DNA from: a virus
Lineage: Duplodnaviria; Heunggongvirae; Uroviricota; Caudoviricetes
IMG/VR virus record: IMGVR_UViG_2695420876_000011
Length of the DNA stretch: 10,601 bases
Direction: 5' to 3' (one strand)
Shown here: positions 4,318 through 4,685 of the stretch, in pieces
Position numbering within the stretch: the stretch's first letter is position 1
Layout of the letters: each line of letters starts with the position of its first letter
Notes under the pieces: generated by a model
Databases searched by the model: none
What the model was told of the DNA's origin: nothing
Seen by the model: only the letters and a program-made list of their open reading frames with translations
Position numbers and translations under genes: made by a program

Positions 4318-4566
4318 TTAGTGAACAAACCACTCGTCAGCAGACTTCCAGGTATCTTTCAGAGTCTCCTGAACAAAAGTTTTAGCTGAATCTTTATCGG
4401 CGGTGCGCGTAACAGAAAGGCCATCGTTGCTGGTGGCTTTTACGATCACCTCTACATCGTCATAACGTTTACTGATGCGTCGGGTTAATTCTTCCTTTAA
4501 CGCATCCACAGCACCGTTTGGCATTTTAGTCATTTTTTCTTTGGCTATGCAGATCTCAATACGCAT
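4318..4566 (-). CDS. dinI: DinI-family DNA damage-inducible protein (prophage-encoded)
   Basis: The 82-aa product [11 protein letters not shown]...[15 protein letters not shown] matches the DinI pattern (MRIEV.IAK ... QETWESADDWFV). GAGGGA Shine-Dalgarno and LexA boxes lie immediately upstream. Confidence 0.85.
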
Positions 4567-4579
4567 AAAAGTCCCTCTA

Positions 4580-4599
4580 TACTGTGTTTGTATACAGTA
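4580..4599 (-). promoter_or_regulatory. LexA (SOS) box 1 upstream of dinI-like gene
   Basis: TACTGTGTTTGTATACAGTA has the CTGT-N8-ACAG architecture and matches the TACTGT(AT)4ACAGTA consensus at 17 of 20 positions. It starts 14 bp upstream of the dinI start codon. Confidence 0.65.
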
Positions 4600-4607
4600 T
4601 TATTTTT

Positions 4608-4627
4608 AACTGTACAAATAAACAGTA
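4608..4627 (-). promoter_or_regulatory. LexA (SOS) box 2 upstream of dinI-like gene
   Basis: AACTGTACAAATAAACAGTA has CTGT-N8-ACAG and lies 8 bp from box 1, giving a tandem operator arrangement. Confidence 0.6.
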
Positions 4628-4685
4628 TCAAGGTGAGTGAGATGAAAAAAACGGGGGTGTTTTTGTTACCCTTAGTTACAAATTG

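Follow-up and report, generated by a model that had tools for sequence, protein, structure and literature searches.

A dinI-like gene with two predicted LexA operators as a probable SOS-inducible moron at the end of an effector-carrying lambdoid prophage

Introduction

The Caudoviricetes record IMGVR_UViG_2695420876_000011, a stretch of 10,601 nucleotides (hereafter the window), carries on its minus strand an intact dinI-like gene that is preceded by two LexA-type operators and followed by a structured 3′ untranslated region (3′UTR). We propose, with a probability of about 0.8 on the sequence data assembled here, that this cassette is a self-contained, monocistronic and SOS-inducible moron at the attachment site (att)-proximal end of an effector-carrying lambdoid prophage. 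The core finding is incremental, for annotations of the gene exist already and the dinI homologues of Salmonella prophages are known to be under LexA control. The analysis adds that (i) a two-operator promoter appears to be characteristic of the end-of-prophage DinI subfamily and is conserved across genera, whereas the chromosomal and Gifsy genes have one operator; (ii) about one complete E. coli genome in three has a member of the subfamily, and O157-type polylysogens have as many as 6; and (iii) its members look like autonomous cassettes that would remain under LexA control even in defective prophages.

Results and Discussion

Two LexA-type operators over the predicted promoter and leader

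The LexA core motif CTGTNNNNNNNNACAG (CTGT-N8-ACAG) occurs exactly twice in the window, at positions 4582-4597 and 4610-4625. The expectation in shuffled sequences was 0.09 per window, and two matches were reached in 1 of 200 shuffles. When compared with the 20-mer LexA consensus used in this study (TACTGTATATATATACAGTA), the proximal operator (TACTGTATACAAACACAGTA, 4580-4599, minus strand) matched at 17 of 20 positions and the distal operator (TACTGTTTATTTGTACAGTT, 4608-4627, minus strand) at 16 of 20, and both contain the core. A heterology index (HI) was calculated with a matrix built from 27 E. coli LexA operators, whose absolute values are not the published ones. On this scale the proximal box scored 3.1 and the distal box 3.6, within the range of known operators (1.0-10) and on a par with the best chromosomal ones, and the next best site of the window scored 14.5.

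A sigma-70 consensus scan placed a -35 hexamer, TTGATA (4626-4631, minus strand), and a -10 hexamer, AAAAAT (4602-4607, minus strand; alternatively TAAAAA at 4603-4608), on either side of an 18-nt spacer, with 9 of 12 consensus matches and a predicted transcription start at ∼4595 on the minus strand. The distal operator fills this spacer, the last two bases of the -35 hexamer being the first two of its 20-mer, and the proximal operator covers the predicted start from roughly -4 to +16. A Shine-Dalgarno sequence, GAGGG (4573-4577, minus strand), was read directly from the sequence, with the ATG 6 nt further on. The two boxes are separated by 8 bp as 20-mers, by 12 bp as 16-mer cores and by 28 bp from centre to centre, and the proximal box lies 13 nt (20-mer) or 15 nt (16-mer core) from the ATG. 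The initial annotation had proposed two SOS boxes over the promoter and leader, 8 bp apart and 14 bp from the start codon. The predicted layout agrees with it, the 8 bp being the distance between the 20-mers and the 14 bp a fair approximation of the two values for the ATG; the -35 hexamer falls one base beyond the range (4318-4630) that it had assigned to the locus.

Most relatives have TTGACA at the -35 position, where this allele has TTGATA. The T turns the first bases of the distal 20-mer into the consensus TACTGT, instead of CACTGT, and lowers its HI from 4.9 to 3.6. The substitution is predicted to weaken the -35 hexamer and yet to strengthen the operator, and looks like a trade-off between promoter and operator strength; the better distal operator of the TTGATA allele would support selection for tightness.

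Conservation of the operator pair

Both boxes were present at 74 IMG/VR loci, at which variation was found only in the central, non-contacted bases. A scan of genome contigs gave only 8 loci, and diverged relatives were collected through a search for contigs encoding homologues. Relatives with 59-77% protein identity from E. coli, Shigella, Salmonella, Enterobacter, Citrobacter and Trabulsiella keep both boxes, and in these six genera the order TTGACA, box, TAAAAT-like hexamer, box, Shine-Dalgarno sequence and ATG persists. The CTG/CAG triplets were invariant in the diverged relatives, while central bases, flanks and inter-box spacing changed. The TTG of the -35 hexamer was invariant in 33 unique upstream sequences, as were the CTG and CAG of the distal box across 33 unique promoters, its central bases varying, and a TAAAAT- or TAAATA-like -10 hexamer was retained at the same position. 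Overall, 36 of the 37 unique promoter/protein combinations of the subfamily have both boxes. That diverged relatives have retained the two boxes speaks for a functional operator pair, and with this comparative evidence SOS control of the cassette is strongly supported.

Palindromic operators are common in phages, and the two palindromes might be operators of a phage repressor, or else a chance occurrence or relic, with the gene being constitutive or silent. This explanation is scarcely credible, because both sites match the full 20-mer LexA consensus beyond the CTGT/ACAG core, their half-sites persist across genera, prophage backbones and integration sites, and single LexA boxes occupy the same place in the chromosomal and Gifsy dinI genes, where LexA control has been shown (PMC3121763).

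A dual-box dinI-like cassette that is 71% identical and carries the 3′UTR element was also found in CACSKA010000001.1, a record labelled Chryseobacterium sp. The sequence looks enterobacterial, and contamination or mislabelling is likely.

The distance between the box centres is 28 bp in the window and 24, 26, 27, 28 or 29 bp in the relatives, so that neither a fixed spacing nor a helical phasing was observed. What the relatives keep is the placement of each box with respect to the -35 hexamer, the -10 hexamer and the start site. The variable spacing indicates that the boxes are not phase-locked, and cooperative LexA binding is neither implied nor excluded by the sequence; two independent strong sites would be enough for tight and steep repression. 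From the tight, cooperative SOS control claimed at first, tightness is thus likely to hold, given two strong sites, and cooperativity does not follow from a spacing of 24-29 bp.

More than one LexA box over a single promoter is also a feature of the multi-operator SOS promoters of lexA, recN and the colicin genes; the LexA boxes of colicin genes overlap and are bound cooperatively. In Salmonella, the lexA boxes are located 6 and 27 bp from the ATG and the recN boxes 8, 26 and 48 bp from it (PMC8072944). The Salmonella lexA boxes are 21 bp apart, in contrast to the 28 bp of the window (24-29 bp in relatives), where both boxes are strong.

An 82-residue protein with a predicted DinI fold

The dinI-like coding sequence (4318-4566, minus strand) starts with an ATG at 4566, ends with a TAA at 4320-4318 and encodes an intact protein of 82 amino acids. 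The PF06183 DinI profile matched this protein over its full length (profile positions 1-63 of 63; E=1.1e-18, 67.7 bits, cut-off 24.2). PHROG 189, "RecA filament binding protein DinI", was matched with E=2.4e-30, the protein falling on positions 71-149 of the 151-position profile, and the DinI structures 1GHH and 7YWA of the PDB were matched on sequence with E=2.9e-12. Identity to E. coli DinI is 47%. The NCBIfam equivalog of chromosomal DinI, NF007893, was matched with 69.9 bits, under its cut-off of 111, and the protein thus appears to be a DinI-like paralogue, not the chromosomal orthologue. An identical protein in E. coli E110019 is annotated by RefSeq as a DinI-like family protein (WP_001217542.1).

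An AlphaFold2 model built with 14 homologues (predicted local distance difference test score 72.5) has the DinI topology, with elements in the order E-H-H-E-E-H: like 1GHH and 7YWA, it is a small alpha/beta fold whose C-terminal helix is long. In a Foldseek search of the PDB its only significant neighbours were 7YWA_A, which is DinI on the RecA filament, and 1GHH, which is free DinI (TM 0.76-0.79), the next match having E=0.02.

The DinI residues that contact RecA are L13, L21, W71, W77, F78, E24, E69 and D76 (Gao et al., 2023; PMC9926225). In alignment A1 their equivalents in the window protein are M15, L23, W73, W79, F80, E26, D71 and E78, that is, 5 identical residues and 3 conservative replacements. 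Every contact position of E. coli DinI being kept, the protein should lodge in the RecA filament's groove, and we infer on good grounds that it binds such filaments. The initial description of the gene as dinI-like is borne out by sequence, predicted fold and RecA-contact residues.

Codon 74 (4345-4347) specifies Lys, where at least 90% of the subfamily, and E. coli DinI (E72), have Glu; the DinI counterpart of this position is absent from the list of RecA-contact residues (Gao et al., 2023; PMC9926225). Three E. coli proteins (P0001 to P0003) are variants of 108-112 amino acids in which ∼30 residues of the DinI-like core are repeated in tandem and in frame.

The cassette as an autonomous unit at the end of a prophage

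Matches to phage genomes cover the query from positions 12-18 to 432-437, which is from the U-run of the terminator to the -35 hexamer, and at least 4 unrelated upstream contexts abut the -35. The unit has a predicted promoter and terminator of its own, and the breaks in homology at the -35 and at the terminator indicate a moron that moves as one piece, from promoter and operators through the gene to the terminator. Of the 5426 complete E. coli genomes, 1726 contain the cassette (4318-4640), some of them in as many as 6 copies, and it was also found in many lambdoid phages, among them Stx1 and Stx2 phages, CP-1639, cdtI, mEp460, YYZ-2008 and VT1-Sakai. Depositors have usually annotated the gene as dinI or DinI-like, and the mEp460 record marks the promoter too. 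Lambdoid morons such as lambda lom and bor are likewise autonomous promoter-gene-terminator units between conserved phage modules, with breakpoints at their ends. Classic morons are constitutive or prophage-expressed; the window cassette differs from them in its predicted control by the host LexA repressor.

The predicted transcript ends at an intrinsic terminator, whose hairpin begins 69 nt past the stop codon and whose U-run (TTTTTCTTTTT, 4206-4216, minus strand) ends 112 nt past it. The interval from the stop codon (4318) to the terminator (4249-4206) contains no open reading frame (ORF), and the gene beyond it is convergent; the dinI-like transcript is thus predicted to be monocistronic. 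A hairpin with a T-run at 4691-4712 (minus strand) resembles a terminator upstream of the cassette and probably insulates it from read-through from the ssrA/att side. It is one of two back-to-back terminator-like hairpins, the other being at 4723-4745 (plus strand), between the att core and the dinI-like promoter.

The region 4200-4720 is 100% identical to E. coli E110019, to which window positions 1-4867 match at 99.4%. The gene order in E110019 is gpJ, lom, stf, DUF1076, espW, DUF1076, espM2, a tfa remnant, the DinI-like gene and ssrA. The two DUF1076-domain genes presumably encode NleG-type effectors. The dinI-like gene is the last gene of an effector-carrying lambdoid prophage integrated at ssrA, and the view that it belongs to a polylysogen with effector cargo is upheld by the T3SS effectors of the prophage (the two DUF1076 genes, EspW and EspM2) and by the multiple copies of the cassette per genome.

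Comparison with other dinI genes and with antirepressor switches

The cassette shares with E. coli K-12 dinI (b1061) the protein family, the predicted fold, the RecA-contact residues, a monocistronic transcript with an intrinsic terminator, and a LexA operator just upstream of the Shine-Dalgarno sequence and ATG. K-12 dinI differs in having one box (ACCTGTATAAATAACCAGTA, overlapping the -10 hexamer), whereas the window cassette has two, both nearer the consensus, and a short 3′UTR without the two-hairpin element, in addition to the moderate protein identity given above. A single strong box, 16-21 bp from the ATG, was observed in the dinI genes of K-12, of Gifsy-2 and of two Klebsiella phages.

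LexA represses the dinI homologues of Gifsy-1, -2 and -3, which respond to mitomycin C or nalidixic acid with induction (PMC3121763; PMC8072944). Their dinI-gfoA/gftA-irsA operons (Lemire et al., 2011; Merida-Floriano et al., 2021) resemble the window cassette in being prophage-borne, LexA-controlled and damage-induced, and in having a terminator-like palindrome ahead of the dinI homologue. They differ from it in that their DinI belongs to another subfamily, with one box 19-21 bp from the ATG, and in that the operons, headed by dinI, are polycistronic with the antirepressor that sets off induction and follow the replication genes, instead of lying at the prophage end. Gifsy prophages use antirepressors, not repressor cleavage (PMC3121763). 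The tum gene of coliphage 186 and those of Fels-2 and PSP3, which are split, are LexA-repressed phage genes with a DinI-like domain as well (PMC3121763); Tum has an N-terminal antirepressor domain, whereas the window protein is the DinI domain alone.

The cassette might alternatively belong to an antirepressor switch under LexA control, of the Gifsy or 186 Tum type, that directly triggers induction of its own or a co-resident prophage. The DinI-like C-terminal half of 186 Tum (PMC3121763) would fit such a role, as would the match to positions 71-149 of PHROG 189, if the length of that profile is read as Tum-like. A small antirepressor ORF was sought downstream, as in the Gifsy operons, and none was found ahead of the terminator that follows the stop codon; nor is an antirepressor fused to the protein as in Tum, all 82 residues being accounted for by the DinI fold in the model, with no N-terminal extension. 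The cassette lies after the tail-fibre/effector region, not after replication genes, and Gifsy-2 DinI is only 41% identical to the window protein. We consider an antirepressor switch highly improbable.

A model for SOS-gated expression

If the cassette is an SOS-inducible moron, host LexA dimers would occupy both strong operators in undamaged cells. LexA on the distal box, which lies in the spacer and overlaps the -35 hexamer by 2 bp, would exclude RNA polymerase, and LexA on the proximal box would block initiation or promoter escape. Both near-consensus sites would have to be emptied, so that the promoter would be tightly shut and would open at strong LexA depletion, late in the SOS response or when damage is severe. 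The predicted transcript of ∼390 nt would encode the 82-residue DinI-fold protein and end in the two-hairpin 3′UTR module, whose second hairpin and U-run would act as the terminator. The protein would lodge in the groove of activated RecA filaments and stabilise them and, at high dosage, might compete with groove-binding substrates such as UmuD, LexA and CI-type repressors. We infer that LexA occupies the operators, that expression comes late and that the protein binds RecA, as we do any influence on prophage induction. A DinI-like protein made late in the SOS response from several copies could plausibly modulate repressor and UmuD cleavage; this is a hypothesis, as is the plausible role in prophage induction that the initial annotation proposed. 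The multi-copy cassette offers a handle on the question of whether SOS output, UmuD processing and CI cleavage, and with the latter Stx-phage induction, are tuned in polylysogens by how many prophages supply a RecA-filament modulator.

Several observations weigh against this reading. The predicted promoter is a consensus match, and the HI values are not those of a published matrix. The Pantoea (L088) and Citrobacter (L106) copies have no recognisable proximal box, and the distal box of phage BP-4795 has decayed; one box is evidently enough for some copies. The score under the NF007893 cut-off means that equivalence of function with chromosomal DinI is not established, and Lys74 takes a negative charge off the C-terminal helix. 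In the one direct genetic test that we found, removal of dinI by non-polar deletion did not significantly alter the induction of Gifsy prophages (PMC3121763), which rely on antirepressors and whose DinI is only 41% identical to the window protein. In the searchable literature we found no description of an E. coli dual-box prophage dinI, no LexA binding or RecA-dependent in vivo induction for the dual-box cassette, and no paper that tests modulation of repressor or UmuD cleavage for this subfamily or mentions its two SOS boxes.

A covarying two-hairpin element in the 3′UTR

The dinI-like 3′UTR contains a two-hairpin, RNA-like element (4211-4303, minus strand), recognised by its fold, by a covariance model and by covariation. 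In the first hairpin (SL1), GGCTGG (4296-4291) pairs with CCAGCC (4257-4252) around a near-invariant loop of 33 nt (AAAUCAUUCAAUACUCGCACUAUCGAAAGUU). In the second (SL2), CCGCAGCACG (4249-4240) pairs with CGUGUCUGCGG (4227-4217) around the loop UCCUGCAUACGU, whose consensus is UUCUUGCAUACGA. A -10-like TAAAAT (4309-4304, minus strand) precedes SL1. The element folds with a free energy of -31.3 kcal/mol (z -3.3), and the window copy matched the covariance model with 105 bits. The 110 nt past the stop codon stay conserved with proteins at 68-74% identity. A 20-nt pattern from the 3′UTR matched at least 120 IMG/VR contigs, with 106 unique variants among the matches listed; among these matches, ∼60% of the copies follow a dinI-like stop codon and the rest lie in at least 7 other contexts.

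RNAalifold on a MAFFT alignment missed SL2 owing to indels, and a covariance model was built from 48 variants, with which 104 copies (84 distinct) were re-aligned; the resulting alignment leans to the structure of the model. In this model-fitted alignment 15 of 17 pairs had changes on both sides, and 94 compensatory cells were counted, compared with 30 ± 4 in shuffles, 0 of 500 of which reached 94. The proportion of paired cells was 90%, against 21-48% with the partners slid. In the MAFFT-only alignment, pair 9-52 of SL1 was GC in 27, AU in 14 and GU in 4 copies. The secondary structure is thus backed by covariation, as would be expected of a small RNA (sRNA) derived from a 3′UTR. G-U cells outnumbered A-C cells (88 vs. 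41), an excess that favours an RNA on the dinI-sense strand without being decisive.

A TAnAAT -10-like sequence 7 nt upstream of SL1 was found in 45 of 47 dinI contexts and in 51 of 65 other contexts, and a reasonable -35 hexamer only in 28 of the 65 non-dinI contexts. In the window, the element would therefore be produced chiefly as the 3′ end of the mRNA under SOS control. The window copy has a U-run after SL2, which is missing from many copies.

A protein-coding reading of the element was rejected: none of the three codon positions varies in the loop, close relatives (AAATAATTC variants) have a stop codon within the ORF that runs through the element in the lambda context, and the opposite strand has stops in two frames. 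No Rfam family was found for the cassette or the 3′UTR element, either at the gathering threshold or at E≤1; the Rfam matches in the window were a partial transfer-messenger RNA (tmRNA) at the att core, an IS009-like match on the tfa remnant and a chance mir-19 match on the two palindromes. The loop sequence is absent from the searchable literature, and the text supplements of Tree et al. (2014) contain neither it nor the word "dinI".

Three roles are candidates for the element: (i) an sRNA, independent or derived from the 3′UTR, by analogy with Klebsiella DinR (PMC10907235); (ii) a module for 3′-end stabilisation and termination that is common to leftward morons; and (iii) a recombination joint for the exchange of cargo. 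DinR is processed from the Klebsiella dinI mRNA (PMC10907235). The Klebsiella pneumoniae dinIR locus resembles the window cassette in that its dinI transcript is under SOS control and has an extended and structured 3′ part before a Rho-independent terminator, and differs in that DinR belongs to the chromosomal dinI and has been described as Klebsiella-specific (PMC10907235).

The SOS promoter could then be real and the selected product be the RNA, with the 3′UTR released or regulatory like DinR and the ORF secondary, or one of several carriers. The DinR precedent of processing from a dinI mRNA (PMC10907235), the conservation of the element at 68-74% protein identity, its strongly covarying stems and its occurrence in lambda, the K-12 chromosome and other contexts that lack a dinI-like gene (at least 7 in all) speak for this possibility, and the window copy ends in a hairpin and U-run typical of Hfq-binding sRNAs. 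The ORF, however, is intact and clearly constrained, with 39 invariant columns in alignment A2, and many element copies lack the U-run. Dual-box dinI-like copies with unrelated 3′ flanks (L091, L095 and L089) exist, which argues that the protein cassette does not need the element. An RNA as the selected product is therefore distinctly unlikely, and a cassette that serves its protein is preferred.

An unlikely and speculative extension of the protein cassette is that the SOS-gated transcript delivers two products: the DinI-like RecA-filament modulator, whose dose would scale with the number of resident prophages, and the RNA module at 4211-4303, which by analogy might act as a regulatory or processing RNA such as a DinR-like sRNA. 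If so, polylysogenic enteropathogenic and enterohaemorrhagic E. coli would possess a regulatory layer, borne by phages and active late in the SOS response, whose targets are RecA activity and host or phage mRNAs, with consequences for the induction of co-resident prophages, including Shiga toxin (Stx) prophages. The RNA element may outweigh the cassette in importance: this covarying structure is shared by lambda and the core genome of E. coli, and we could find neither an Rfam family nor a name for it.

The element in lambda, HK633 and the E. coli chromosome

In lambda the element is located in the b region, between ea31 and ea47 (NC_001416 24156-24249, minus strand; 95.8 bits). Many other lambdoid phages that have no dinI-like gene contain it too. 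A diverged copy consisting of SL2 only (CCGCAGAACGUU...AACGUUUCUGCGG; lambda 22567-22665, minus strand) follows ea47 and faces the convergent tfa. The SL2-type hairpin may travel with, or delimit, leftward cargo genes.

In E. coli K-12 the element lies between ecpE and ykgJ (NC_000913.3 304211-304303, minus strand; 92.9 bits), and its end is 28 nt upstream of the ykgJ start codon. Around it (positions 3185-3500 of the extracted locus L237, ∼304185-304500), a decayed 3′ remnant of a dinI-like gene, without promoter or SOS boxes, is followed by the intact element. The ecpE-ykgJ stretch was present in 4958 of 5426 complete E. coli genomes (∼91%), pointing to an old prophage relic fixed in the species. 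EcsR2, near ykgJ, was considered and belongs to a different intergenic region.

In phage HK633 (JQ086377.1 20680-20760), the feature labelled "attP" by the depositors is a copy of the element. A function of the element as attP is unlikely, because the HK633 label rests on the K-12 region, itself a prophage remnant with the 3′ end of a dinI-like pseudogene.

The att junction and the remainder of the window

The prophage ends at the 3′-terminal 30 nt of ssrA, the tmRNA gene (4838-4867, minus strand; partial Rfam tmRNA match), which form the att core. E110019 has an intact ssrA at the corresponding place, whereas the window has only these last 30 nt. Directly after this core, within 4838-10601, comes a second integrative element, with a P4-like integrase (7309-8478), fragments of an IS5-family transposase, yfdQ and yfdR, and no complete E. 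coli genome in the collection joins this element to the prophage.

An IS009-like Rfam match at 3931-4159 (plus strand) scored 104 bits, below the gathering score of 117, and overlaps part of a degraded tail-fibre assembly gene (4050-4202) that converges on the cassette; the match probably reflects prophage tfa sequence from which the family was defined. An imperfect direct repeat, CTACTGTCYGG..., is present at 4769-4788 and 4809-4828 with a spacing of 40 bp, in the interval from the cassette to the att core, and may represent arm-type binding sites of the integrase.

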